A stretch of 64,000 nt of DNA from Candidatus Pacearchaeota archaeon (GTDB taxonomy: Archaea > Nanobdellota > Nanobdellia > Pacearchaeales > GW2011-AR1). The notes beneath the pieces were generated by a model. The model had not been told where the DNA came from. It did not search any database and was given only the letters and a program-made list of their open reading frames with translations. The position numbers and the translations under genes are program-made. The stretch is taken from positions 15,437 through 79,436 of the forward strand of contig JAIFVX010000001.1 of assembly GCA_019659125.1 (NCBI GenBank). Reading direction: 5' to 3'. Positions 153 to 15,000 of this stretch are shown in pieces (the stretch's first letter is position 1; every line of letters starts with the position of its first letter).

Positions 153-1430
153 TTACTTCTTCTCTTTGATCTCAATGCAGACACCAGCACCAACAGTAGC
201 TCCAGCGTCTCGGATTGCGAATCGAGCCATGTGAGGGTTCTTTGCCTGTGTTTCTAAGACAAGGTTTCCGATAGGCTTAACTCGAACTTTAGCAAGGTCT
301 CCATTCTTCAAGAAGTCTGGATTCTTTGAACTCTGTCCGTCAGGGCTTGTCTTTTCAATCAATTCGATGAACTGGCATGGGACCTGAGCAGTGTGCAAGT
401 GGAATACAGGTGTGTAACCCTTTGCAATAACAGTAGGATGTGAAATAACTGCAATCTGAGCAACGAACTCTTCAACAATCGGGATAGGGAATGCTGCGTC
501 GCAGACAACGTCTCCTCGTGCAACATCCTTCTTTCCAATACCTCTGATGTTGACTCCAACGTTGTCTCCAGCTTCTGCAGAAGGCAACTGTTCATGATGC
601 ATTTCAACTGATCGTATCTCTCCCTCTACTCCCTTTCCAGTTCGTCCAGGTAAGATTATGACTTTCTGTCCGACCTTGATTATTCCTGTTTCAACCTTTC
701 CAACGGGAACGGTTCCAATACCGGTAATTTCATAGACATCCTGTAATGGCATTCGAAGAGGAAGGTTTGTTGGCTTCTCAGGCTGCTTGAACAAGTCAAG
801 TTGTTCCATGATAGTAGGACCCTTGTACCATGGCATGTTAGCAGATTTCTTGACAACGTTATCTCCCTTGAATCCTGAAACTGCCAAGAAGGTGATTTCA
901 TCAGGCTTGTATCCTGCTTGCTTCAAAAGAGTAGAAACCTCTGCCTTGACCTTATTGAATGCATCTTCCTTGTAGTCGACAGCGTCCATCTTGTTTGCGA
1001 TGACTGCAATCTGTCCTACTCCCATAGTCCTCAAAAGCCATACATGCTCTTTTGTCTGTGGTTGAACTCCATCTTTTGCAGATACGGTCAAGAATGCTGC
1101 ATCAGACTGTGAAGCTCCAGTGATCATGTTCTTAATGAAGTCCTTGTGTCCAGGAGCGTCAATGATGGTAACTTCATACTTGTTGGTTATCAATTTTTCA
1201 TAAGAAAGGTCGATAGTGACTCCTCGTTCTCTCTCTTCCTTAAACTTGTCCATAACGAATGCGAATTCGAATCCTACTTTTCCATGCTTCTGTGCTTCTG
1301 CCTTAAGCTTGTCAAGTTCCTGTTGAGAAAGCTTTCCAGAATCGAACATAAGTCTACCTATTGTCGTCGATTTTCCGTGGTCTACGTGACCTACAAATGC
1401 AACGTTAATTGTTGGTTTTTGCTTTGCCAT
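153..1430 (-). CDS. tuf: translation elongation factor aEF-1alpha (EF-Tu family GTPase)
   Basis: 425 aa; N-terminal GHVDHGKST G1 motif with the archaeal/eukaryotic-type start MAKQKPxINV; DAPGHKDF G3 motif; NKMD G4; full-length three-domain EF-1alpha. Confidence 0.95.
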   Translation of the reverse strand: MAKQKPTINVAFVGHVDHGKSTTIGRLMFDSGKLSQQELDKLKAEAQKHGKVGFEFAFVMDKFKEERERGVTIDLSYEKLITNKYEVTIIDAPGHKDFIKNMITGASQSDAAFLTVSAKDGVQPQTKEHVWLLRTMGVGQIAVIANKMDAVDYKEDAFNKVKAEVSTLLKQAGYKPDEITFLAVSGFKGDNVVKKSANMPWYKGPTIMEQLDLFKQPEKPTNLPLRMPLQDVYEITGIGTVPVGKVETGIIKVGQKVIILPGRTGKGVEGEIRSVEMHHEQLPSAEAGDNVGVNIRGIGKKDVARGDVVCDAAFPIPIVEEFVAQIAVISHPTVIAKGYTPVFHLHTAQVPCQFIELIEKTSPDGQSSKNPDFLKNGDLAKVRVKPIGNLVLETQAKNPHMARFAIRDAGATVGAGVCIEIKEKK

Positions 1431-1558: not shown

Positions 1559-1822
1559 ATGAAAGACAGAGAAACAATTTACTTCGATGCAGAATCAGTA
1601 CGTGAAGCAAGCGATGCACTTAGTTATGACCTTTCACAGTTATCTAATGAAGGATTACTTACCTATATAGACAGACTTCAGGATAGGCAGGAAACGATTG
1701 TATTAAGAGGAATAAATTCCGGCGCAACCAGAGAAGATCATACTCTTTTAAGAATGTATGACCTAGCAATACAGAGAGCACATGATGATTTCGAAGGAAG
1801 AGGCAGGAGAAAAGCCGCTTAG
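1559..1822 (+). CDS. hypothetical protein (87 aa), first gene of an opposite-strand cassette inserted between tuf and fusA
   Basis: ORF with ATG directly after the TATA-like box; no recognisable motif; ends with TAG and is followed in the same frame by ORF 1829. Confidence 0.45.
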   Translation: MKDRETIYFDAESVREASDALSYDLSQLSNEGLLTYIDRLQDRQETIVLRGINSGATREDHTLLRMYDLAIQRAHDDFEGRGRRKAA

Positions 1823-1828
1823 AGTACG

Positions 1829-2050
1829 ATGAAAATGCACTATTCTTTGTTTGCCTCGCAAGTAAGGGATTATGATCCATCTCCACTGTCAAAAAAAGAA
1901 CTGATACGTCATATTGTAAGACTAAGCAGATCTACTCAGGAGCTCGAGATGAATCGAGGTACATGCCCGGAAATTGAGTTGTGTCTTCGGGCAGTCAAGT
2001 ATGCTTCAAAAAGAGCGTATCAAGAGGCTATGCGAAAGTACTCTGCATAA
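1829..2050 (+). CDS. hypothetical protein (73 aa), same frame as ORF 1559 and separated from it by a single TAG plus 2 codons
   Basis: ORF track; 6-nt spacing to the previous stop; no recognisable motif. Confidence 0.4.
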   Translation: MKMHYSLFASQVRDYDPSPLSKKELIRHIVRLSRSTQELEMNRGTCPEIELCLRAVKYASKRAYQEAMRKYSA

Positions 2051-2054
2051 TCCT

Positions 2055-3608
2055 ATGGCTGAAAAACACTATGACGCTGACTGGGCAAAAGCAAAATCAC
2101 GTGGCTTAGTTAAAGATATGATTCAGAAGACTATTCTTACATTTAGAAGACCACAGGATCTTAAAGTTCTTTGTTTACCGGGAAGAGATGCAGCAGAGGT
2201 CTACGAAGTTTACGATCCATTAGGTATCTCGCGATATAATATCATTGGTCTAGAGCGAGATCGAAGTATTGCAGAAGAGATTGAAGGAAAGGGATTAGGT
2301 ATCAAAGTAATAAATAAAAGCCTGGAAGAGTATGTAGATAAAAATCATATTTCTTGCCTCGATGTAGTAAGCCTCGATTTTACTGGATATTTACAGAGCT
2401 CCCAGTTAGATGCCCTAAGAAAAATATGTAAAAAATATGCCAATACTAATTGGATACTTCATTGGGCAAATTCCATTAAAAGAGATGGGGCTAGTAATAA
2501 TCTGTACGTACGAGGAGCAGCAAATGATTTTGAAACGGCTGTAAGTAAGTTGAGTGACTTTATAAATAAAGAAAACTCACCAGACAATTCCATAGCGATG
2601 TCTACCGCTAATGTAATGGAAGAGTTTCAAAAAAAGATTTCCAATGGAGAGCTCAGTAAAGATGAAAAAGCTCTTTCAGCTCTCACCTTAGTTAGAGCGA
2701 CGACAGGAGGAGAGTATCTTGATGGGATAGGAAAAATTTTCAAATTCTGTACGGGAAATAAATATGAAGGATATATACAACAGTTGGAGCAGGAAATGGG
2801 GAGGGAGATAGATAGGGAAAACCCCTATAAGTCTATAGGCTATCATCCAATAGTTCGCGACATGTTAGATGAGATTTCATTGACTAGCATTAAGCAAGCT
2901 GCTAAGGAAAATAAGATAGATCCTTTGTTTATATCAACTATCTGGAGTGCATTAGAGCATGCGGCAAGTGAAACTAAGGGGTTTGTGCCGAAAGATACGG
3001 TTACATATTCATATATTTCAGAGTCAGGCAATCCAATGGTTGGAAATGTAAGCTTTCTTTCTCACAACTGGAGATATGATAAAGCCGCAAAAGAGCTTGC
3101 CAGAGCTATAGGATTTCCGAATAAGATGAATTTAAAGGAGGACTATCAATTTTTAATGGCTTGTAAGAAGGCTTCAGATGCGATGCATTCTGAAGGGCGT
3201 TCTCCAGAGGACATAAAGAACATGATGAAAAAAGAGAAGGAAATAGTCTTTCTGGGAAGTTCATCTCGTCCAGTTCTTTCAAAGCAAAGATTTGTAGAGG
3301 AGCTCGAGAATGGGATGTCACTTGATCAGATAAAAGAAAAATACAGAGGATGGGAGAACAAGCCTCTCCCCCAATGGAAAGCTCACGTCACGATGGGAAG
3401 CTACAAGTCAAAAGACTTAGTTGAAGAAGCGGATGAAGATAGTGATCTAGAGAAGATCACAAAAGAGCAGGCAGTGGATTTATTATCTTCAGGTATACCT
3501 GCCGAAGAGATCCATGCAGCATACCCTACATCATTTAGCACTCAGCAATTGCGTGCATATAAAGCCCATGTAACCATGGGCACATATAAAAACGGAAAAG
3601 AAGAATAA
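2055..3608 (+). CDS. hypothetical protein (517 aa) with a Rossmann-like N-terminal region and a duplicated C-terminal KAHVTMG[ST]YK motif
   Basis: Long ORF (track gives 1974; the ATG at 2055 lies 4 nt after the upstream stop and avoids a 77-nt overlap). N-terminus KVLCLPGRDAAEV...NIIGLERD...LDVVSLDFTGY resembles MTase motifs I/II/IV but is non-canonical. C-terminus carries WKAHVTMGSYK and YKAHVTMGTYK. Confidence 0.6.
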   Translation: MAEKHYDADWAKAKSRGLVKDMIQKTILTFRRPQDLKVLCLPGRDAAEVYEVYDPLGISRYNIIGLERDRSIAEEIEGKGLGIKVINKSLEEYVDKNHISCLDVVSLDFTGYLQSSQLDALRKICKKYANTNWILHWANSIKRDGASNNLYVRGAANDFETAVSKLSDFINKENSPDNSIAMSTANVMEEFQKKISNGELSKDEKALSALTLVRATTGGEYLDGIGKIFKFCTGNKYEGYIQQLEQEMGREIDRENPYKSIGYHPIVRDMLDEISLTSIKQAAKENKIDPLFISTIWSALEHAASETKGFVPKDTVTYSYISESGNPMVGNVSFLSHNWRYDKAAKELARAIGFPNKMNLKEDYQFLMACKKASDAMHSEGRSPEDIKNMMKKEKEIVFLGSSSRPVLSKQRFVEELENGMSLDQIKEKYRGWENKPLPQWKAHVTMGSYKSKDLVEEADEDSDLEKITKEQAVDLLSSGIPAEEIHAAYPTSFSTQQLRAYKAHVTMGTYKNGKEE

Positions 3609-5798
3609 TTACTGGTTCTCAGCCAAGCCCTTTCTACTTCTGATCTTTCTAATGACCTCTGCTTGCAATTCTGTTGGAAGCTTCTGGAAGTTCTGATCCA
3701 TAAGGGATGAGACTCCTCTACCTTCAGTCGAGCCTCGCAAGTCATTGCTCCATCCGATCATTTCAGCTACAGGAATCTTTGCCTTGATGAGCGTGTCAAT
3801 ACCTTCCTGCGTTACATCAAGGAGAACTCCTCGCTTACCACCGACAAGCTGTGTTACAGTCCCCATGAAGTCAACGGGAGCTTCAATCAAATGTGTTTGG
3901 ATAGGCTCGAGAATAGTTGCTCCACCCTTTCTCATGGCATCAAACATTCCAAGTCGAACAGCTGGATAGATCTGTGCCGGTCCTCTATGCATGTGGTCCA
4001 CGTGAAGCTTCGCATCATGCAATACAAACTTGGTCTTCATCATAGGTTCTTTTGCCAGAGGTCCACCATCTACAACAAGCTTCCATCCATCCATGATAGA
4101 ATCAATGACTTCAGGAAGTAAGACTAATCCTCTGGTTCTGTCTTCAAAGACATTTCCTTTGTACAGTTCCCGATATGATCGCGCTTCATCGTTTGGAATT
4201 CCCAGTTCGTTCAGCTTCTTCCATACATCCTCAGCTCTTTTCTTCAGTCGAGCCTCTGGAAGCTCTCCTTTTTCCATAGCTGCATAAACATCATCTTCTA
4301 AGGGAGCCATGCTCAAATAGAATATGTTATGTCCATTGGGAGTCCTGACTTCAACTTCAGGGCTTTCTCGCGCGATTGACTCTCTATAAACAACAATAGG
4401 AGGCCCTGTCTTAACGTCAAGACCTTTCTCATTCTTGATTCTTCCCTCTATGATTTCCAAGTGCAGTTCACCCATTCCAGAAAGCAAGTTTTCTCCTGTT
4501 TCCTCATTGATTTCAATCTTGATGCTTGGATCCTCTTTTCCTACTCTTCGCAGAACTTCAATTAACTTTGGAAGGTCTGCTGACTTGGTAACTTCAATAG
4601 ACTTGGTAATGACTGGCTGGAAGATATGTTTAATTTCTTCAAACGGTGTCTGCTCATTAAGTGTGATAGTCTCTCCAACATCCACATTGAGGCCTACAAG
4701 AGCAAGAACATTTCCGGCAGGTACTCTCTCAAGCTGTTCTGGCTTAATTCCATTGTAAACGAGAACTTGCTGGATTCGTGTTTTCTTCTTGGCGTTGTTG
4801 GCATATACTTCCATACCATTGACAAGAGTTCCAGAGTAGAGTCGTCCTGCAGCTATTTCTTTTCCTGATCGCTTATCAATGATGATATTGGTGATAACGA
4901 ATGCTATCTCTCCCTTTGGATCACACTGTATTAAACTTTTTCCCAAGGTACTGTCTATATCTCCCTTCCAAATTTTAGGAATTCTATATTTCTGAGCTTC
5001 TAAGGGATTAGGAAGATGTTTTACAGCCATATCAAGAATAACTTCATTAAGAGGAGCATTCTCCCATACCCACTTCTTCCTTTCCTGATCTTCCATCTCA
5101 TATATCTTGTAAATATCTTTAAAGCTAACATTCTTTTTCTTCATGAATGGCAAAGAAAGTGCCCAGTTTTCCTTTGCAGATCCAAAAGCAACGCTTCCAT
5201 CCATAACATTGACTTTCCACTTTTCCTTATACTCTGGTTCTGCGATCTGCATAAGAAGATTATTGAAATCATTAATTAGCTTCATGAATCTTTCCTGCAT
5301 CTGCTCAGGTGTTACTTTCAATTCCTTGATCAATCGATCAACCTTGTTAATGAATAATACAGGTTTCACTCTTTCTCGCAATGCCTGCTTCAAGACTGTT
5401 TCAGTCTGCGGCATGATACCCTCTACAGCGCAGATAAGGACGAAAGTGCCATCAATGGCTCGCATAGCCCGTGTAACGTTTCCTCCAAAGTCAACGTGTC
5501 CTGGAGTGTCGATGAGATTGATAAGATATTCCTGGCCTTGGAATTCGTGAGCCATAGAGACGTTTGCAGCGTCAACAGTCATTAATCGTTCTTGTTCATC
5601 AGCGTGCTGCCAGGTAGTCATTCCTTCATCGAGATTTCCAGCATTTTTAGCAGCCATCAATCCAGCTGCAGCTAACAAATTGTCAGTAAATGCAGTCTTT
5701 CCGTGGTGGATGTGCGCGCTTGTCGCTACATTACGGATTGTCTCTTGCTTCGACGTCAATCGCTTGATCTTCTCTAAACTTGTTTCTTTCTCTACCAT
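3609..5798 (-). CDS. fusA: translation elongation factor aEF-2
   Basis: 729 aa; GTPase G-domain (AHIHHGKT, DTPGHVDF, NKVD); C-terminal domain IV with the diphthamide-region HVDHMHRGPAQI motif. Confidence 0.95.
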   Translation of the reverse strand: MVEKETSLEKIKRLTSKQETIRNVATSAHIHHGKTAFTDNLLAAAGLMAAKNAGNLDEGMTTWQHADEQERLMTVDAANVSMAHEFQGQEYLINLIDTPGHVDFGGNVTRAMRAIDGTFVLICAVEGIMPQTETVLKQALRERVKPVLFINKVDRLIKELKVTPEQMQERFMKLINDFNNLLMQIAEPEYKEKWKVNVMDGSVAFGSAKENWALSLPFMKKKNVSFKDIYKIYEMEDQERKKWVWENAPLNEVILDMAVKHLPNPLEAQKYRIPKIWKGDIDSTLGKSLIQCDPKGEIAFVITNIIIDKRSGKEIAAGRLYSGTLVNGMEVYANNAKKKTRIQQVLVYNGIKPEQLERVPAGNVLALVGLNVDVGETITLNEQTPFEEIKHIFQPVITKSIEVTKSADLPKLIEVLRRVGKEDPSIKIEINEETGENLLSGMGELHLEIIEGRIKNEKGLDVKTGPPIVVYRESIARESPEVEVRTPNGHNIFYLSMAPLEDDVYAAMEKGELPEARLKKRAEDVWKKLNELGIPNDEARSYRELYKGNVFEDRTRGLVLLPEVIDSIMDGWKLVVDGGPLAKEPMMKTKFVLHDAKLHVDHMHRGPAQIYPAVRLGMFDAMRKGGATILEPIQTHLIEAPVDFMGTVTQLVGGKRGVLLDVTQEGIDTLIKAKIPVAEMIGWSNDLRGSTEGRGVSSLMDQNFQKLPTELQAEVIRKIRSRKGLAENQ

Positions 5799-5838: not shown

Positions 5839-6159
5839 TTACTCGGAGGTTTCTTTCTCGAGCCTACTGAATTCTTCTACCCAATCATTAAAAAGGTGTC
5901 TTTCGCCATGAGCAAACAAGGATTGATACTCTTCACTTCCCATGATCTTTGCCTGTATGCGTAATTCAACGGTGTTTATCCGTACACAAAGGGAGTTATA
6001 TATGCGTGAGTGGTTATGGTTTTTATCCCTATAATCGCTTGTGTAGTCCCGAAGAACTTGTATTTTTTCTCGAGCATGCTCTCGCAGATCGACAACAATC
6101 GGTTCTTCAACCATCTCTTCATCCGGCTCAGCGTAGACTTCCATCTTATTCCTCGTCAA
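5839..6159 (-). CDS. hypothetical acidic protein (106 aa) between rps7 and fusA
   Basis: ORF co-oriented with the operon; no recognisable motif. Confidence 0.4.
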   Translation of the reverse strand: MTRNKMEVYAEPDEEMVEEPIVVDLREHAREKIQVLRDYTSDYRDKNHNHSRIYNSLCVRINTVELRIQAKIMGSEEYQSLFAHGERHLFNDWVEEFSRLEKETSE

Positions 6160-6212: not shown

Positions 6213-6788
6213 TTAATCTCCACTATTACTGTCATTCCAAAAATCTTTAAATCCTGCCCACGCCCTTGACAAAAGTCCTTTCTTTTCTCGAGGAGTCTCT
6301 TCCTTTTTAACACCACATGTGGAACAGTAATTACCATCTCTGAATTGGTGAGTGCACTTAAAGCCACCCGAGTTTCTTACTGAGGGATATGAATTATATA
6401 CGTTATCTACAGATTGAGTCTTAGTGCTTTGCATATGAGCGTGTTTTTCCGATAATGCCTTATAGACAACGTTAGATAGTGCGATCGAACCGGATTTTCC
6501 ATCTGCAAGAGCTTCCAAAGCTGAAATTGCTTCCGATACCGATATATTGGACAGTTTTATCCCATCAACTATTTTTCTCGTAGCTGTATAAAGACTTTCA
6601 ACATACTCTCGTTCTGGAGACTGCTCATCAACGCTTGTAATAAGCTGGATACCTGCATCCAAGGAAATGTTTGCGTTACGAAACAGTTCACTTGTTTGTG
6701 TTGAATAAGATACAAGTTTATCAAGAGTTTCCTTATAGTAAGCTCGTTCACTATAGGTTTCTACCAACTGCGTAATATCCTCTATCAT
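6213..6788 (-). CDS. hypothetical protein (191 aa) with C-terminal C-x-H...C-x2-C zinc-ribbon-like motif
   Basis: ORF co-oriented with the operon, 31 nt downstream of rps7; CTHQFRDGNYCSTCG near the C-terminus. Confidence 0.45.
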   Translation of the reverse strand: MIEDITQLVETYSERAYYKETLDKLVSYSTQTSELFRNANISLDAGIQLITSVDEQSPEREYVESLYTATRKIVDGIKLSNISVSEAISALEALADGKSGSIALSNVVYKALSEKHAHMQSTKTQSVDNVYNSYPSVRNSGGFKCTHQFRDGNYCSTCGVKKEETPREKKGLLSRAWAGFKDFWNDSNSGD

Positions 6789-6819
6789 GCATAAAGTACC
6801 AAGAGGACTATATTTAAAG

Positions 6820-7437
6820 TTATCGTGCAGAATCGGCCTGTTTTTCAGCTTCGTTCTTCTTATTCATGGCATAGCTTTCCATATTTCCCTGTGCAGCAAG
6901 CATGATCTCATTTGCCAGCGTTTCCGCCATATGCTTTTTCTTGCCAAATGATTTAGCGTACGCTCCAATGACCATCCATCGCAATGCCATATCAATCCTT
7001 CGTACAGGGCTCGTATCAACAGCTTGAGGGTATCGTGCACCGGCATGCTCAATGACAGTGATCTCATCTCGAGGAGATGCATGCTCAATGGCGTCAATGA
7101 AGACCTGGATAGGGTTCCTCTTCATTTTTTGCTCTATCATCTCAAGTGCCTTAAGCACGGTGGCCATGTTCTTGTTGTATTTTCCAGAGCTCCAGCTTGT
7201 GATAATCTTATGCTTCTTTCCTACATGTCCTGGAACAGCAAGCCTGTTGGCAAGTCGTTCAATAATGTTCATCTTGGTCTTTGCGAATCGCTCTTGCGCT
7301 CGTCCATGGGTCTTCAAAAGAAGTCGAGGTGTAAGATTGAAATAGGGCTTCAATGCAGGGTCTTTTATCTGCACTTCAACAAGCGAGTACTTGTCGAATG
7401 CCTTGAACTCGTGCTCTTGAGGTGTTGCTGTGGTCAT
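6820..7437 (-). CDS. rps7: 30S ribosomal protein S7 (uS7)
   Basis: 205 aa; archaeal S7/S5e-like sequence (…KSFGKKKHMAETLANEIMLAAQG…); start overlaps the upstream ORF stop (ATGA). Confidence 0.9.
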   Translation of the reverse strand: MTTATPQEHEFKAFDKYSLVEVQIKDPALKPYFNLTPRLLLKTHGRAQERFAKTKMNIIERLANRLAVPGHVGKKHKIITSWSSGKYNKNMATVLKALEMIEQKMKRNPIQVFIDAIEHASPRDEITVIEHAGARYPQAVDTSPVRRIDMALRWMVIGAYAKSFGKKKHMAETLANEIMLAAQGNMESYAMNKKNEAEKQADSAR

Positions 7438-7694
7438 GTTAATGATTCAAGACCTCCCTTTTTTCTGTTTTCAATCTCAGTGTATATTTCTCTTCCTTTT
7501 ACCGTAGCTTTTACATCGTACATTCTAGTCCCTTTTTCTTTTTCATGTACATTTACTAAACCCATTTTTTGAAGCTGAAGTGCAACATCGTAAGAATCTC
7601 TTGTCTTTTCAGAGAGAGTAATACCAAAGTGTTCCGAAGTAGATAGATACAGAATTGTTTCTTGAGGATGCGATAGTCTTATCTCTTCTGCCAT
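7434..7694 (-). CDS. small winged-helix-like protein (86 aa) inserted between rps12 and rps7, translationally coupled on both sides
   Basis: ATG overlaps the rps12 stop, and its TGA overlaps the rps7 ATG; HTH-like segment ITLSEKTRDSYDVALQLQKMGLV followed by a beta-hairpin-like KGTRMYDVKATVKG. Confidence 0.55.
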   Translation of the reverse strand: MAEEIRLSHPQETILYLSTSEHFGITLSEKTRDSYDVALQLQKMGLVNVHEKEKGTRMYDVKATVKGREIYTEIENRKKGGLESLT

Positions 7695-8116
7695 TATCTT
7701 CTACCCTTCTCTATCTTGCCCTTTACCAGTCTTCGGAGAGGCTGATCATTTACTTTGATAACTTGATATCTGATTCCAGGAATATCTCCCTTCGTGCTTC
7801 CCATGGCCCCGCCAATTCGTTCAATGACAACTTCATCGTGTTCATCAATGAATCTTTGTGCTAAGTTTCCAGGGATGAATGCTCCAACTTGGATACCATT
7901 CTTTATCAATTGTACTTTGCAGCATTTTCTCATCGCTGAGTTAGGCTGCTTCGCTTCTTTTTCAAATTTCGAGATGACGATTCCTTTTGCTTGGGATGAT
8001 CGTCCTATAGGGTCTGATTTCACGTTCAATCGAAGTGTCCGTTCTTTATACTGCCTCTGGCTCCATCTAAATTTTCTTCGGTTTTTCATCAATTTTCGAG
8101 CATTCATTAAACCCAT
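7694..8116 (-). CDS. rps12: 30S ribosomal protein S12 (uS12/S23e)
   Basis: 140 aa; conserved …[17 protein letters not shown]…FIPG…[12 protein letters not shown]…[10 protein letters not shown]. Confidence 0.92.
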
Positions 8117-8645: not shown

Positions 8646-11600
8646 CTAGTCTTTTTCTTCTTTTGAAGGTTTTGTCTTGGTTGCTAAAGGTCCAGTGACT
8701 TTAACCAATAATCCTGGAAGGCCAGTGCCGACGGGAATTGGCTGGTTAAGAAGAATATTCTCAATCACTGAGTTCAGTTCGTCTCGAGCTCCCTGGATAG
8801 TTGCATTGATAAACTGCTTGTCAGGAGTTTCGAATGTCGCACGGGCAAGAATACTTGCCTTGTCTGAGATGATTCCCATTCTCGTGACTCCCTTGACAAC
8901 ACCTGATGAAGTCATTGCGTCAGCAACAAGCTTGAGATGTCTATCATTGATATCTAATCCTTGAGAATCGATAACATGATGGATTTCATTGATGATAGTT
9001 TGGCGAGCAGCTTCTATTCCAAGTACATTTGATACGTCGTGAATGTCATTCGAAGTGATTTTTGTCCTGTCAACTCCCTTAACCTCAAGAATCTCCTTCA
9101 GGTTACTTCCTGCAGTCAAGATGACAAAATCCTTTCCTCTATTGGCTACAACAACCTGTGAAACACCCTTTATTCCAGAGATGATAGTGTCCTTCAATTT
9201 CTCTTTCAACTTGTAGATTGCCTTGAAGTCCATGTCTCCAGCAACAACGGTGATCTTCATGTCATTACCCTTAGTGCTGAATCCTTTTTCATTCAATCGC
9301 TCGATAATTCTTTGTGATCCGACATGCACCGACTTGAGTGCTTTCTGATCAAGGAGCATTTCAATCTTCTTGCTTGCGAAGTCAATCTTTATTTCAGATG
9401 CTATCTCTTTGAGTGTTACTTCTCGTATCTTTTCAGCAATCGTCTTTGCATCCTTATCATTGTTATGTTCCTTGTCAAGGCCTATCTCCATCTGAGGTGT
9501 AGAAGGTTGCTTTCGTGCATCCAAAATTTCAATTAATCGAGGCAAACCAAGTGTAATCTGCATTTCTGCAACTCCTGCATGGTGGAATACGTTAAGAACC
9601 ATTTGCGTCGAAGCTTCTCCAAATGATTGTGCAGTCACTACTCCCTGAGCTTCTCCAGGTGCGACTTTGTCCTGTTTAAGATGAAGGCGAGAGACATCCT
9701 TTCCATCATCTCCAAACATAAACTGAACGATTCGCTCAGATGCATCTCTAACAGTACCATCATATTCAACTTTCAGGTCCTGCAATGCGCTGACGAGTCT
9801 CCTATACAAGTATCCTGATTTTGGAGTTCTTAATGCAGTGTCCATAAGACTGTCTCGTCCAGTGATAGCTCCAAAGAAGAATTCAGTAGGCTTTAGCCCT
9901 CGGAAGAAAGATGACTTGATGAATCCTCGTGATTCAGGGGCAAGGTCTCCACGCTTAAAGAAGGGCAATGTCCTTTCCGTGTATCCAAAGCTGATTCGCT
10001 TGCTTCCTAATGCTTGCTGACCGACGCAGCATGCGATTTGAGTAATATTCAACATACTTCCTGCAGCTCCTGGTGTGATCATCTTGTTCACGTTTCCATC
10101 AACGGGGAAGTTTGCCTTGACAATAGTTCCCACTTCAGTTCTAACCTCGTTCAATACCTGCAATATCTTGATCTCTCGTGTTTCCTCAGCGCTCTTTCCA
10201 GGAAGCAGTGAAAGTGTTCCCTCTTCGTAATGCTTGATTATTTCAGCAGTCTTTCTCTCGGATTCAGCGACGATTTCTGCAGTTAGTTTCTTGACTTTGT
10301 CTGAAACATTGAGATCATGAAGTGAAAGCGTGTATCCTTTTCTTGATAAGTAGATAGTACCTAAAAGGAATGCTTTGTTGATTGCCTCAACAGCAGTATC
10401 ACGGTCGAATTCCTTGTCAATAATCTTCACCATCTCTCCATTTTCAGCTCCAAATGAGTTGCTTCCAGTTATCTCATGAGGAACTTTTATACTTGATCCC
10501 TTAGGAATTATCTGTGCAAAGACTTCAGTTCCGAGAAGTTCTTTCTTTCGTGCAGTATTAATAACATTTGCAGCGAAAAGAAGCTGATCAGCTTCAGCCT
10601 TCATCATGGTAGCCTTTCCAAGAAGATAGTTCCCCGTGACTGCATCCGCAATAGTTCCAACAAGATTCATGTTGTTCTTTGAGGAAATAATATTCTGATT
10701 TACGTCAAGCAATACCTTAGATTCTGCACGTGCCTCTTCAGTCTGAGGACTGTGGATGTTCATTTCATCACCGTCAAAGTCAGCGTTGTAAGGAGCAGCT
10801 GTTGCAGGATTAAGTCTGAATGTTCTTCCAGGAAGAACTCGGACATAGTGGGCCATAAGGCTTTGCTTGTGCAATGAAGGGTGTCGGTTGAATAAAACAA
10901 TGTCTCCATCTCGTAGATGTCTCTCAATCTTATATCCGGGCTGTATTTCAGCGCATAATTCTTCCTTCAGATCAGCAGTAATCCTCTTTCTCTTTCCATC
11001 AGTTCGTATGACATAGTTTGCTCCAGGATATTTCTCTCCCGCATTGATTAATTCTTTCATTACCTCAAGATTTGCAGTCGTTACGCTTTCAGCAACCGTA
11101 ATGATTCGCGCGATTTCAATAGGGATACCAACTTCATTGATGTTGATGTAAGGATCGGGCGATACGACGGTTCTTCCGGAATAGTTGACTCTCTTTCCAG
11201 CAAGGTTATGTCTAATTCTTCCCTCCTTTCCTTTGATTCTCTCAGTAATCGTCTTCAAAGGCTGTCCAGATCTATGTCGTGCAGGAGGGATTCTTGAAAT
11301 ATTATTGTCAAAGAATGTGGTAACGTGGTATTGCAGCAAGTCCCACAGGTCTTCAATAATGACCTCGGGAGCTCCCGCATTGAGGTTTTCCCACAATCTT
11401 TGGTTAGCTCTAATGATATCGGAGAGCTTGTGTGTCAGGTCGTCTTCAGATCTCTCTCCAGTGTCAAGGGTAATCGATGGTCGTACCGTTACGGAAGGAA
11501 CTAAGATGATGGCCAAGACTGCCCACTCCGGTCTGGCAGTTTTAGGATTAATTCCTATCTTCTTCAATTCATCATCCTGGATGCCTACAAGTCTCTCTCG

Positions 11601-12086
11601 TACTTCAATAGGAGAAAGTCGTTTCTTTCCGATCATAAATGTACTTGGCTTTTCTAGTTTTACTCGCTCAATAGCCTCATTGCAGAATGGACACTTCTTT
11701 GCATCTCGAGCTTTCTTAGCACGCTCTGCGGGAGCATAATTCTTCTGCTTCTCTTCGCTGAGAGTCAGTTTACCGCAATGAGGACAGAAGCTTCGCAAGC
11801 ACAGCTCAATTAAAGGAATATACTTTATATGGAAGACAGGTCGTGCAAGCTCAATGCTTCCTGGATGCCCGGGGCATTCTTTTACTCGCTTTCCGCACGT
11901 TCTGCATCTCACTCCTGGATCAATAGCTCCTAATCGCAAGTCCATTAATCCTCCATCAACAGGGAATCCATCAATGTCATACAATTCTGGAGTCACAATC
12001 TTTGCAGAGCTCAACTTCTTGACCTGGTCGGGACTAAGAAGATTGAATTTGAGTGCTCTAACTTGTTTTCTGAAGTGTGTTTGCAT
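8646..12086 (-). CDS. rpoA: DNA-directed RNA polymerase largest subunit, A' and A'' fused in one 1146-aa ORF
   Basis: N-terminus has the A' zinc motif (CRTCGKRVKECPGHPGSIEL) and catalytic NADFDGDEMNIH; the bridge-helix region (…TPKSGYLYRRLVSALQDL…) is followed without a stop by the A''-type trigger-loop region GEASTQMVLNVFHHAGVAE and the A'' C-terminus; start overlaps the rpoB stop (TAATG). Confidence 0.9.
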   Translation of the reverse strand: MQTHFRKQVRALKFNLLSPDQVKKLSSAKIVTPELYDIDGFPVDGGLMDLRLGAIDPGVRCRTCGKRVKECPGHPGSIELARPVFHIKYIPLIELCLRSFCPHCGKLTLSEEKQKNYAPAERAKKARDAKKCPFCNEAIERVKLEKPSTFMIGKKRLSPIEVRERLVGIQDDELKKIGINPKTARPEWAVLAIILVPSVTVRPSITLDTGERSEDDLTHKLSDIIRANQRLWENLNAGAPEVIIEDLWDLLQYHVTTFFDNNISRIPPARHRSGQPLKTITERIKGKEGRIRHNLAGKRVNYSGRTVVSPDPYININEVGIPIEIARIITVAESVTTANLEVMKELINAGEKYPGANYVIRTDGKRKRITADLKEELCAEIQPGYKIERHLRDGDIVLFNRHPSLHKQSLMAHYVRVLPGRTFRLNPATAAPYNADFDGDEMNIHSPQTEEARAESKVLLDVNQNIISSKNNMNLVGTIADAVTGNYLLGKATMMKAEADQLLFAANVINTARKKELLGTEVFAQIIPKGSSIKVPHEITGSNSFGAENGEMVKIIDKEFDRDTAVEAINKAFLLGTIYLSRKGYTLSLHDLNVSDKVKKLTAEIVAESERKTAEIIKHYEEGTLSLLPGKSAEETREIKILQVLNEVRTEVGTIVKANFPVDGNVNKMITPGAAGSMLNITQIACCVGQQALGSKRISFGYTERTLPFFKRGDLAPESRGFIKSSFFRGLKPTEFFFGAITGRDSLMDTALRTPKSGYLYRRLVSALQDLKVEYDGTVRDASERIVQFMFGDDGKDVSRLHLKQDKVAPGEAQGVVTAQSFGEASTQMVLNVFHHAGVAEMQITLGLPRLIEILDARKQPSTPQMEIGLDKEHNNDKDAKTIAEKIREVTLKEIASEIKIDFASKKIEMLLDQKALKSVHVGSQRIIERLNEKGFSTKGNDMKITVVAGDMDFKAIYKLKEKLKDTIISGIKGVSQVVVANRGKDFVILTAGSNLKEILEVKGVDRTKITSNDIHDVSNVLGIEAARQTIINEIHHVIDSQGLDINDRHLKLVADAMTSSGVVKGVTRMGIISDKASILARATFETPDKQFINATIQGARDELNSVIENILLNQPIPVGTGLPGLLVKVTGPLATKTKPSKEEKD

Positions 12087-15000
12087 TATTGTTCGAATTT
12101 GTTCTTAAGTTCAAATTTAGTGTGAATACCAAGGCCAAGAAGCTCGTCGACAAGCAGTTTGAATGCATACGACATTTCCAATGGCTCTATTTCGCTGCTT
12201 CCGCAGAGCGAGCACGCGATCTTATTTCTGATAATATCTTCATGGGTCATGTTTCCGCAATCCTTACAGATGTACACAACAGTCTTGTCCGAGTCATATC
12301 GTTCCTTTAATAACAATGAGGCTCCATGTCCTGCTAATGCTTGCTGCTCCATTTCTCCTAATCGAAGACCTCCTCCTCGTGATCGTCCTTCTATAGGTTG
12401 TCGTGTGAGTAATGCGACTTTTCCAGAAGCTCGTGCATGCATCTTGTTCTTGACCATATACTTCAACTTCAAGTAGTACATGTTTCCAATATAGATCTTA
12501 GCGTCCATCTTCTTTCCGGTAATACCGTTGTACATAGTCTCTTTTCCATCATAGCTGAATCCCATTTCCTTAAGCTGCCCTTCCAATTCTTCAACACTGG
12601 CTCCGGTGAATGGAGTTCCATCAATGATTCTTCCGGTGACTGCTCCTGTCTTTCCAGCAAGCAATTCAATCAAGTAACCTACTGTCATACGGCTAGGGAT
12701 ACCATGAGGGTTGAACATTAAGTCAGGTCTTACTCCTCGTGCAGTGAATGGAATGTCTTCAGAGTCAGCAATAAGACCAACGACTCCTTTTTGTCCGTGA
12801 GGTGTAGAGAACTTGTCTCCAGGTTCTGGAAGTCTTGAATCTCGGGTTCTTACTTGAGCAATCTTGTTTCCTTCCTGATCTACCGTGATGAATACAGCGT
12901 CAACAACTCCTCTCTCTTCCTGACGTATTGCTGAACTTGCTTCTTTCTTTGACTGTATACTGATGTCTTTTGCCTCACTTAAGAATTTAGGAGGTGTAAG
13001 CTTTCCAATGACAACTTCTCCCTCATTCATGTCTGCTTCAGGGTAGGCAACTCCATCATCTTCCAAGAATCTATAGGATGCCTCTGTTCTATATCCTGAA
13101 ACATCTTTAGCAGGTACAGTAATCTCATCAGAGAGCCCTCCAGGGTATTGTAATTCTGTTGCAGAATATGGTCTGAAGTAAGTATTTCTTCCCATACCTC
13201 TATCAACGCTTGCTTTATTGAGAACAACTGAGTCTTCCATGTTATATCCTTCAAATGGCATGATAGCGACGACAATATTCTGTCCCGATGGATATGCATC
13301 TAAGGTATCATAGACGAATGTTCTAACAACAGGTCTTTGAGGATAGTGGAGGATGGAAACATCAGTGTCAAGTCTGACAAGATAGTTTGCAGCATAGATT
13401 CCAAGACTTTGTTTAAGTGTTTTACTTCCTCTGTTAAGACGAGATGATTGGTCGTGATTTCCAAAAGGAACTAAGCTAGTGATAAGTCCAAAAAGATCAA
13501 TAGGGTGGATTTCAAGGTGCGTGTGCTCAGGAGACAAATCTTCTTGACTCAAAGCAACAAGAGCATTATCTTCTTCAGCGGCATCAATATATTCAATGAT
13601 TCCCTGGTTAAGAAGATCAATCCACTTCATCTTTCCCTGTTCGAGCAATACAAGATATTCATCCTTCAAGGAGCTTACTCCGTTATCTGCAACAATCAAT
13701 GGTCGTAAAACTCTTCCAACTTCAACAGACATGGTGATTTGATTAGTCATCTCATCATACCTGACACTCAATTCTTTAGGAAGCTGTCCCTTTCTTCGTA
13801 CTGCTCGTATTTTTCTTGTAAAGTCTCGAGGATCATTGACGAATCCGATGAATCGCCCGTTGAAGAAGACATCTTTCTCTCCTTCCTTACCAAGCCCAGC
13901 TTCAGTGAATTTCTTCAGGACAACATGCTCATCAAATGCAACGGCCGTTGAAATCTTACTAAGAATGGCTAGGTTCTTTCTCAATCCGATTTCAGTTCCT
14001 TCAGGAGTCTCAGTAGGACAGAATCGACCATAGTGAGTTGGGTGAAGGGTTCTAGCAAGAAAGTTTTCCTGTTCTCCAGGAAGCATGCTAGAGACTCTTT
14101 GTAATTGTGAGAGGATGGCAAGATAATTGGTTTTGTCCATGTTTTGTGTTACACCGCTTCTCTCACCAATCCAACTTCCTGTGGCGATGGCGCTTTCAAT
14201 TCTATGGGTGAACAGTGTCGATTTAGCAATGGTTTTGATAGAATAGAATTTCTTTCTCTTGGCAGTCTTTTGAAGAGAATATTGGATGTCTCGAATAAGA
14301 ATGTTCAAGTTGACTCTAAACAAGTCAGACATCAAGTCTCCTGAGAGCTTTACCCGCTTGTTTGCATAGTGGTCTTTGTCAGTTCGTATCTTGGTTCCTT
14401 CCTTAGAACGAAGATAGAGTCTTAGTAATCTGCAGAGAGTCAATGCTTTCTCAGTTCGTGAAGGCTTGTCCATACCGATATGGGGCAAGAAGAATGAGTC
14501 GATTCTTTGCTTGACTCTGTCAAGAATTTCCTTCTTCGTTCCCTGGATTCCTGACTTTTCAGCAATATACATCATCGCCTCTTCATTATCTTTTATCTGG
14601 GCGAATTCGTAGAGGTTGACAATAAGCCCGTCATTCTCGTGGCTTATGTTCTTGGCAATATCTGCCTCTTTTGTCATTCCTAGGGCCTTCAAAACAACGA
14701 TAGCAGGGATGTTCTTGAGTCTGCTGAATGTCAAATCTAGGATTCCTTCGCTTGTTTCAGCGATAGTGGTAGGGATTCTATATGATCCTCTCTGGGAGAA
14801 GACCCTCAATATTAATCCTTGTCTTCCCTCTTCAATAAATGGCTGGTTGGCTGCAAGGTCCTCGTTCATGACCATGACTCGCTCATTACCATTGATGATG
14901 AAATATCCTCCAGGGTCAAGAGGATCCATGTAGTTCTGGACAAGCTCTTCCTTGTTCATTCCATAGGTAGTGCATGCAGCGCTTCGTACCATGATAGGGA

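Follow-up and report, generated by a model that had tools for sequence, protein, structure and literature searches.

A three-gene unit in a variably filled gap between the EF-2 and EF-1α genes of a Pacearchaeota archaeon, with a predicted methyltransferase-fold protein of an uncharacterised family

The EF-2/EF-1α Locus

The canonical archaeal order of transcription and translation genes is rpoB-rpoA-...-S12-S7-fusA-EF1α (PMC10833476). The stretch analysed here, referred to below as the window, is 64,000 nt of contig JAIFVX010000001.1 (positions 15,437 to 79,436 of the forward strand; assembly GCA_019659125.1) from a DPANN archaeon, Candidatus Pacearchaeota; it retains this order and orientation on its minus strand, as rpoB-rpoA-...-S12-S7-EF2-...-EF1α. 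Between the genes for elongation factors 2 (EF-2) and 1α (EF-1α) are three open reading frames (ORFs) on the plus strand, designated ORF87, ORF73, and ORF517. A preliminary description of the sequence had reported these three ORFs, a TATA box, an in-frame TAG, and a duplicated KAHVTMG[ST]YK motif, all of which are present, and had interpreted the block as a horizontally inserted defence, modification, or selfish module. The main features of the locus are:

153-1430, minus strand: EF-1α (aEF1A), left flank of the slot; Pfam GTP_EFTU, D2, D3, and GTP-eEF1A_C (E 2e-54)
1431-1558: divergent promoter region of 128 nt; two opposed TTTAAATA boxes with an inverted repeat between them
1559-1822, plus strand: ORF87 (KW805_00065), orphan, predicted three-helix bundle, TAG stop
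1829-2050, plus strand: ORF73 (KW805_00070), orphan, diverged paralog of ORF87
2055-3608, plus strand: ORF517 (KW805_00075), protein with a predicted methyltransferase fold, ATG start
2055-2489, plus strand: ORF517 amino acids (aa) 1-145, N-terminal helices and strands β1-β5; invariant K12, G43, E48, E67, D108, and R143
2490-2969, plus strand: ORF517 aa 146-305, hypervariable all-helical insertion between β5 and β6; 16% identity
2970-3074, plus strand: ORF517 aa 306-340, conserved β6-β7 hairpin (YSYISESGxPM) completing the sheet
3240-3410, plus strand: ORF517 aa 396-452, conserved strand and then helical repeat 1, ending WKAHVTMGSYK
3456-3593, plus strand: ORF517 aa 468-513, helical repeat 2, ending YKAHVTMGTYK; aligns with repeat 1
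3609-5798, minus strand: EF-2 (aEF2), right flank; Pfam GTP_EFTU, EFG_III, EFG_IV, and EFG_C

The three ORFs, annotated publicly under the KW805 numbers given above on a 575-kb contig, are closely packed. The TAG of ORF87 (1820-1822) is followed by AGT ACG and then by the ATG of ORF73 at 1829, which is thus 6 nt beyond the stop and in the same frame, offset by 270 nt. ORF73 ends with TAA at 2048-2050, and ORF517 begins 4 nt further on in a different frame; its mechanical start is a TTG at 1974, but the ATG at 2055 was used instead. At the other end, the stop codons of ORF517 (3606-3608) and of the oppositely oriented EF-2 gene (3609-3611) are back to back with no nucleotides between them, at the junction TAATTA.

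The Gap in Related Genomes

The idea that this locus has been invaded depends on an expectation, stated in the preliminary description, that the EF-2 and EF-1α genes are normally adjacent and co-directional. For comparison, 80 metagenome loci (L033-L112) were recovered with the window EF-2, to which their own EF-2 sequences are 69-87% identical. EF-1α was seen alongside EF-2 in 31 of these, and in none of the 31 are the two directly adjacent: the gap, 547 to 6495 nt long, contains between one and eight ORFs, on either strand. One locus has EF-1α inverted, and seven of the 17 loci with sequence reaching 10 kb beyond EF-2 show no EF-1α at all. The S12-S7 and S7-EF2 junctions are likewise variably filled. 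Counting from S12 to EF-1α, or to 7 kb past EF-2 in loci with no EF-1α detected, there are 458 slot ORFs, which fall into 343 clusters, 266 of them singletons. By sequence, the recurrent clusters look like RHH (ribbon-helix-helix)/CopG-like proteins (eight loci) and HicB-like, PIN-like, NYN, DenV-like, and SNase/nuclease proteins. A filled EF-2/EF-1α gap is therefore the normal state of this lineage; and since the gap is always filled, with different genes each time, the three-gene unit does not appear to be a recently imported foreign cassette.

The occupants of the gap in the window are nevertheless its own, as the preliminary description had in effect proposed. No relative of ORF517 was found within 10 kb of EF-2 in any of the 80 loci, by tblastn or with a hidden Markov model (HMM) of the family, which shows the placement of the three-gene unit between EF-2 and EF-1α to be specific to this genome. 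By tblastn the same loci also have no relatives of ORF87 or ORF73, nor of three further ORFs (ORF86, ORF106, and ORF191) found nearby in the window, where each junction after S12 is filled: S12-S7 by ORF86, S7-EF2 by ORF191 and ORF106, and EF2-EF1α by the three-gene unit. The features of this neighbouring region are:

5839-6159, minus strand: ORF106, between S7 and EF-2
6213-6788, minus strand: ORF191, between S7 and EF-2; own TATA box at 6811-6818
6820-7437, minus strand: S7
7434-7694, minus strand: ORF86, between S12 and S7; weak winged-helix-like match
7694-8116, minus strand: S12; RNA polymerase subunits beyond

ORF86 shares 1 nt with the S12 stop codon and 4 nt with the beginning of S7. 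None of ORF86, ORF191, and ORF106 has a Pfam or NCBIfam match.

Promoters and Stop Codons

The octamer TTTAAATA, which occurs 19 times in the window where 4.6 copies are expected, is the TATA consensus of this genome. One copy, at 1529-1536, begins 30 nt before the ATG of ORF87, and another, on the minus strand at 1460-1467, is the EF-1α TATA box; with two opposed boxes, the 128-nt spacer between EF-1α and ORF87 is a divergent promoter region. Of the 53 start codons examined, at least 11, that of EF-1α among them, have an exact or near-exact TATA octamer starting some 27-37 nt upstream, suggesting that short or absent 5′ leaders are the norm in this genome. The TATA-like element of EF-2, TTTAAAAA, starts 37 nt upstream of its gene, and S12 and ORF191 also have TATA boxes of their own. 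The preliminary description had the cassette interrupting an essential operon; with EF-2, EF-1α, and ORF87 each having its own TATA box, there was no operon to interrupt. Between the divergent TATA boxes there is also a 14-nt inverted repeat (TAAACTTTTCTTTC / GAAAGAAAACTGTA, at 1464-1477 / 1482-1495, with a 4-nt loop), possibly an operator or a structural element.

Read-through of the TAG between ORF87 and ORF73, raised earlier as something to be checked, finds no support. TAG is an ordinary stop codon here, used by 12 of 53 window genes (rpoA′ among them), and within the 64,000 nt of the window no tRNA with a CUA anticodon was found, the only tRNAs being tRNA-Lys and tRNA-Pro.

Composition and Signs of Mobility

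The block was originally singled out as noticeably more AT-rich than its surroundings. This is so relative to its two neighbors (GC content 0.387 for ORF517 and 0.39-0.41 for the cassette, vs. 0.44 for EF-1α and 0.43 for EF-2), but not relative to the genome: the mean for the 48 larger genes of the window is 0.421 ± 0.024, putting ORF517 at -1.4 standard deviations (SD). Its GC content at third codon positions is 0.334, vs. 0.40 ± 0.055 for the same 48 genes, and its synonymous-codon log-likelihood under window usage is -1.088, vs. a mean of -1.094 ± 0.054; that of ORF87 is also typical for the genome. The block seems AT-rich because it was compared with two elongation factor genes, which are among the most GC-rich and codon-biased.

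Other signs of mobility were sought. No att-like, terminal, direct, or inverted repeats were found bracketing the cassette, and it includes no recombinase, integrase, transposase, or nuclease ORF. PHROGs and PADLOC scans of the three ORFs and of a 74-member ORF517 family alignment gave nothing above threshold; in PADLOC, ORF517 had no match and ORF87 a single marginal one (HEC-01B, E 0.013, 13.3 bits). Plasmid collections yielded no match to the ORF517 family, and phage collections only a weak one, in a 595-kb uncultured phage. Across 23 loci the family has no conserved partner gene, and in the window ORF517 has no adjacent nuclease or effector, its neighbors being EF-1α and EF-2. The one island-like trait of the cassette is its absence from this site in relatives, and with native codon usage and GC content in range, the features examined do not bear out horizontal insertion of a defence, modification, or selfish module.

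Predicted Fold and Candidate Active Site of ORF517

A structure for ORF517 was predicted with AlphaFold2 (AF2), using the 74-sequence family alignment, and has a mean predicted local distance difference test score (pLDDT) of 91 and a predicted template modeling score (pTM) of 0.88. From the N-terminus, it consists of helices, strands β1-β5, more helices, a β6-β7 hairpin, a region of helices plus one strand, and two three-helix modules. The strands (residues 38-40, 63-66, 84-86, 104-112, 132-140, 310-321, and 327-337) make up a seven-stranded Rossmann-like sheet, with β1-β5 parallel, β6-β7 as the hairpin, and helices on its flanks. In Foldseek searches of the PDB and BFVD with this model, the top matches were all class I methyltransferases, at probability 1.0; the most compact PDB matches were to the RsmD-like structures 2ift and 2fpo [root-mean-square deviation (rmsd) 3-4 Å over 135-140 columns, probability 1.0, E ~1e-3]. 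The predicted structure thus shows the fold of a class I S-adenosylmethionine (SAM)-dependent methyltransferase, in agreement with the earlier suggestion of a Rossmann-like N-terminus with methyltransferase-like but non-canonical motifs.

Six residues (K12, E48, E67, D108, R143, and Y320) are invariant both in the 74-member alignment and in 13 paralogs from tandem arrays (described below) that are only 21-39% identical to one another. P327, like Y320, is invariant in the alignment, but varies in four of the diverged array paralogs. Two of the six occupy positions with established roles: E67, in the sequence ERD, is at the end of β2, where an acidic residue is the canonical SAM-ribose-binding position, and D108 is at the end of β4, the canonical position of catalytic motif IV. 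The other four (K12, E48, R143, and Y320) line the presumed active site. The motif I loop of the family, L/F-P-G-x-D-A-x-E, is non-canonical, with G43 its only invariant residue, but it is placed after β1 as expected. Motif IV has the family consensus S-L-D-Y-T-G-P, SLDFTGY in ORF517 itself, so the aspartate is kept while both prolines are absent; with D-Y/F-T-G in place of DPPY, ORF517 falls outside the classical amino-methyltransferase group (RsmD, N6-adenine DNA methyltransferases, and HemK). A K-D-K-E tetrad like that of the 2′-O-ribose methyltransferases (K12, D108, K142/R143, E/D323) was considered and rejected: position 142 may be K, R, S, T, or M in the paralogs and position 323 E, D, N, or S, so that of these positions only K12, D108, and R143 are fixed.

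In Pfam and NCBIfam scans, neither the three ORFs nor the 74-member family had a match above threshold, and a PDB sequence search with the full-family profile gave no meaningful match. Weak matches (E < 1) to Methyltransf_35 (PF20553) are found in 21 of the 74 members, the best with an E value of 6.9e-5, although not in ORF517 itself. In two members, P0003 and P0047, the alignments are collinear with the model from the N-terminal helix through β5 (for P0003, aa 5-178 correspond to model positions 8-164 of 309). A literature search on PF20553/Methyltransf_35 and on DPANN methyltransferase families found nothing relevant.

Modular Conservation and the C-Terminal Repeats

Conservation within the family is markedly modular. 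Mean pairwise identity is 46-51% in the core, 16% in the helical insertion (aa 146-305), against 47% for the core on either side of it, 18% in a second helical segment (aa 341-395), and 60% in each of the C-terminal repeats. The insertion is predicted with pLDDT values mostly of 84-97, dipping to 78 at aa 171-180. The two copies of the terminal motif, KAHVTMGSYK at aa 442-451 (nt 3378-3407) and KAHVTMGTYK at aa 503-512 (nt 3561-3590), have different third codon positions in seven of nine same-residue codons. That the duplicated motif is under selection, as was first suggested from this one sequence, is upheld by the family as a whole, in which the repeats are conserved throughout and, at ~60% pairwise identity, are the best-conserved part of the protein.

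The nature of the repeats is hinted at by DUF433 (PF04255), a helix-turn-helix model, which matches ORF517 at aa 471-492 (E 0.009, 16.2 bits vs. a cut-off of 23.6). It matches 28 of the 74 family members, and reaches 30.1 bits, above the cut-off, in the distant relative P0173. A likeness of the repeat to the GcrA N-terminal domain was considered and dropped, there being no Pfam GcrA match even at E ≤ 1. The module also exists alone: locus L030 encodes, at 11264-12421 on the minus strand, a 385-aa protein made up of two or more copies of this C-terminal repeat, with no methyltransferase core.

Distribution and Genomic Context of the ORF517 Family

The ORF517 family is large and uncharacterised, and has no match to a curated model. 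There are 82 ORF517 homologs, mostly full-length and 23-42% identical to it; an exhaustive profile search extended this to 1154 representative clusters (50% identity), of which 429 had E ≤ 1e-30. Proteins of ~440-470 aa without the C-terminal repeats are numerous among the clusters. The family is found mostly in DPANN archaea, with named members from Pacearchaeota, Woesearchaeota, Nanoarchaeota, “Micrarchaeota,” and Aenigmarchaeota. Its genomic context differs in every genome, and consists mostly of housekeeping genes, such as those for tRNA synthetases, ParA, SMC, Cdc6 with PolD, and RNase J, rather than the surroundings typical of a defence island. Examples from translation are tyrosyl- and tryptophanyl-tRNA synthetase genes and an L7Ae-S28e-L24e...EF-2 run near the family gene in L001, the methionyl-tRNA synthetase gene in L003, and S17e in L006; in L014 a family gene is directly upstream of an EF-1α gene whose product is 85% identical to that of the window.

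In several loci the family occurs as tandem arrays: three copies in L014 (6882-11563), five or six in L026 (2923-13746), and three in L030 (3165-9263). The copies are 21-39% identical to one another, and all keep K12, E48, E67, D108, R143, and Y320, which suggests that, for all their divergence, they are probably active enzymes. One metagenome-assembled genome (MAG; AlinenSediments_bin-4957) is the source of both L014 and L030, and must therefore have at least six copies. Genes flanking the arrays include those for GAPDH, PGK, thermosome, and MPG glycosylase, and L030 also has an SNF2 helicase-methyltransferase fusion nearby.

Some further associations were seen. An RHH-like protein of ~90 aa (Pfam DUF7557) adjoins the family gene in L005 (9578-9853), L016 (9641-9952), and L018 (8317-8562), and a protein of 400-480 aa with Ig-like domains is encoded near it on the opposite strand in these three loci and in L030; in L016 and L018 the DUF7557 ORF separates the two. 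Outside the archaea, a Steroidobacteraceae MAG (L029, 9899-12814) and Steroidobacter sp. S1-65 (P0181) have the family core fused to ~450 aa of tetratricopeptide (TPR) repeats, the core motifs of these bacterial homologs being CLPG..E, SLDLCG, YVSDRGTPM, and WKAHLTMGTY. Since P0181 is from a cultured isolate, it is a possible experimental entry point. Finally, a short, AT-rich homolog, split into ORFs of 140 and 191 aa, is found in L115 (2846-3876; IMG/VR UViG_3300033153_003320) and also in L114. In L115 it lies between the terminase large subunit and portal genes of a GC-rich tailed-phage contig, and keeps KAHITMGTY, with the β2 acidic residue apparently lost.

The Small ORFs

Neither ORF87 nor ORF73 has a homolog among 5.8 billion proteins, in which each finds only itself; they are not conserved core genes, in keeping with the preliminary view of the unit. 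They do resemble each other, with 31% identity over 61 aa by BLASTP (E 7e-6) and no similarity detectable in their DNA, which suggests selection on the coding sequences following an old duplication. The best AF2 model of ORF87 (pLDDT 84) has helices at residues 11-22, 30-54, and 58-86; the other four have pLDDT values of 60-67, and a fold search with the ORF87 model gave no significant match. Kinship of the small ORFs with the RHH-like DUF7557 proteins was considered and rejected (hhalign probability 0.1%). A consensus TATA box at a standard distance and typical codon usage favor ORF87 and ORF73 as real genes. Within its family, ORF517 is alone in being preceded by small ORFs of this kind, which therefore are not obligate partners of it.

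Interpretation

The interpretation favored here, at about even odds (a probability of roughly 0.5), is that ORF87, ORF73, and ORF517 form a native, separately transcribed unit in one of several hypervariable slots of the S12-S7-EF2-EF1α region, and that ORF517 is likely a nucleic-acid methyltransferase. Transcription would begin from the TATA box ~23-30 nt upstream of ORF87 and continue through ORF73 and ORF517, across spacers of 6 and 4 nt, to meet EF-2 head-on. ORF517 would be an enzyme built on a class I SAM-dependent methyltransferase core, presumably catalyzing methyl transfer; the ~160-residue helical insertion between β5 and β6 could serve as a target-recognition module, and the two C-terminal three-helix repeats ending in KAHxTMGTY could bind nucleic acid. 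A nucleic acid is suggested as substrate because the repeats are helix-turn-helix-like. The enzyme may then methylate DNA or RNA with a specificity that varies among family members, which would explain the tandem arrays of three to six deeply diverged, catalytically intact paralogs. ORF87 and ORF73 would be lineage-specific paralogous helical proteins co-expressed with it.

Several observations weigh against this. No methyltransferase sequence model reaches threshold for the family, and where scores were printed for Methyltransf_35 matches (two members), they were 15.4 and 15.6 bits, where the gathering cut-off is 27. There is just one glycine in motif I instead of GxGxG, and motif IV is D-[YF]-T-G instead of (D/N)PP(Y/F), so that SAM binding is suggested by fold and residue positions only; Foldseek E values are modest (~1e-3), and the matches cover ~140 residues out of 517. 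It is sub-threshold DUF433 matches that suggest a helix-turn-helix character for the repeats, a PDB sequence search with the C-terminal repeat profile having given no meaningful match. Neighborhoods of the family show no consistent partner and therefore do not constrain the class of substrate (DNA, RNA, protein, or small molecule), and their housekeeping character would fit an rRNA or tRNA modification enzyme equally well. Co-transcription of the three ORFs is read from their spacing alone.

There is also an alternative, though an unlikely one: ORF517 could be a housekeeping rRNA or tRNA methyltransferase of the DPANN archaea, brought next to translation genes by genome shuffling, with repeats that bind structured RNA or the ribosome. 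The frequent translation genes near family members elsewhere (L001, L003, L006, and L014) are as this would predict, the most compact structural matches (2ift and 2fpo) are RsmD-like 16S rRNA m2G methyltransferases, and the extreme conservation of the C-terminal repeats suggests a conserved macromolecular partner. Arrays of three to six diverged paralogs and a hypervariable insertion would be unusual for such an enzyme, however; a phage contig and Steroidobacter TPR fusions also contain homologs; the best ORF517 homolog is only 42% identical, where EF-2 relatives reach 87%, and the gene has a fixed place in none of the 80 relatives' loci. The original proposal of a recently acquired foreign module, for defence, restriction-modification, or selfish ends, inserted into an essential and highly expressed operon, is improbable. 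Its location is unique among the 81 sampled loci, and the family is patchy, fast-evolving, and prone to expand into arrays, one of which (L030) is near the SNF2 helicase-methyltransferase fusion; the AT-rich L115 homolog resembles a moron-like insert between terminase and portal genes, and the corresponding slots in relatives hold toxin-antitoxin-like genes (RHH, HicB-like, and PIN-like). Yet its codon usage is native, its GC content is only 1.4 SD below the genome mean, and it shares its promoter octamer with housekeeping genes; neither flanking repeats nor an integrase or nuclease partner accompany it, and it has no PADLOC, PHROG, or plasmid match and just the one weak phage match; with separate TATA boxes in front of the two EF genes, no operon is interrupted; and elsewhere the family is found among genes for tRNA synthetases, ribosomal proteins, PolD, GAPDH, and PGK.

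A narrower question is whether ORF87 and ORF73 are genes at all, or separate ones. They share a frame, with only TAG and two codons between them, have no homologs anywhere, and four of the five AF2 models for ORF87 are of low confidence (mean pLDDT 60-67); they could conceivably encode one 162-aa two-repeat protein by TAG read-through, or represent a pseudogene in decay, or spurious ORFs within an extended leader 5′ of ORF517. Any of these seems very improbable: 12 of 53 genes, rpoA′ being one, have TAG as their stop, and no suppressor or Pyl tRNA is present in the window; similarity at the protein level (E 7e-6) and not at the DNA level implies coding selection; and the ORF87 ATG has a consensus TATA box at the standard distance, in front of an ORF whose codon log-likelihood is typical for the genome.

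The reading of ORF517 as a nucleic-acid methyltransferase of a native unit can be extended, speculatively and with rather little likelihood, to the family as a whole. It may constitute an unrecognised class of nucleic-acid-modifying enzymes, combining the core with a variable recognition insertion and a KAHxTMGTY helix-turn-helix pair, and diversified in DPANN arrays that would mark or disguise the cell's own DNA or RNA when in conflict with hosts and viruses. Phages and bacteria would now and then capture homologs, and the conserved translation neighborhood of Pacearchaeota would be a preferred landing zone for accessory genes of this kind, with their fast turnover.

The organism of the window is a tiny symbiotic archaeon, and most genes of DPANN archaea have no assigned function. 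With its fold, candidate active site, modular conservation, and paralog arrays, the ORF517 family lends itself to biochemical study. Should ORF517 prove to be a DNA or RNA methyltransferase of variable specificity, it would bear on self/non-self marking in ultra-small symbiotic archaea; should the family be merely another lineage-specific methyltransferase, the finding is an ordinary one. The variably filled S12-S7-EF2-EF1α junctions of ~80 genomes, for their part, urge caution in taking an interrupted operon as a sign of foreign insertion in DPANN archaea, and may point to the places where new genes build up in the genomes of this Pacearchaeota lineage.

Comparison with Known Systems

Compared with the contiguous archaeal S12-S7-EF2-EF1α cluster, the window keeps the gene order but has its junctions occupied, and the same looseness, with other occupants, is found in all 80 relatives.

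For ORF517 itself, the DNA methyltransferases with variable target-recognition domains are a possible functional parallel. The family shares with them a conserved core, a hypervariable segment, and a putative nucleic-acid-binding module, as well as several diverged copies per genome. It lacks the DPPY/SPPY (N6/N4) and PC/ENV (C5) motifs, and ORF517 has no nearby partner endonuclease and no PADLOC match; a DNA substrate is a proposal only. Among the DUF433/homeodomain-like helix-turn-helix domains, the DUF433 core is matched by repeat 2, and the module is likewise predicted to have three helices, but in ORF517 the domain is duplicated and fused to an enzyme, and KAHxTMGTY is not a DUF433 feature. 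PF20553 (Methyltransf_35, “putative O-methyltransferase”) is the sole methyltransferase model matched recurrently in the family; the second half of the model is unmatched, and PF20553 is itself uncharacterised.

The closest structural relatives are the RsmD-like enzymes (2ift, HI0767; 2fpo, YhhF/RsmD). There is no sequence-level match of the ORF517 family to any PDB methyltransferase, but the β1-β5 core superposes on these with an rmsd of 3-4 Å over 135-140 columns, and as in class I methyltransferases generally there is an acidic residue (E67) at the end of β2 and an aspartate (D108) at the end of β4. The loop after β1 (CFPG..A.E) presumably also resembles the CFAGSGALGLEA loop of RsmD. ORF517 differs from RsmD in having one glycine in motif I and D-Y/F-T-G instead of DPPY/F in motif IV, in its 160-residue helical insertion between β5 and β6, in its ~180 extra C-terminal residues with their two repeats, and in its size, 517 aa vs. 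~180-200. The ORF517 protein of the three-gene unit is, in sum, a new architecture within a known methyltransferase superfamily, in a lineage with a loose str neighborhood.

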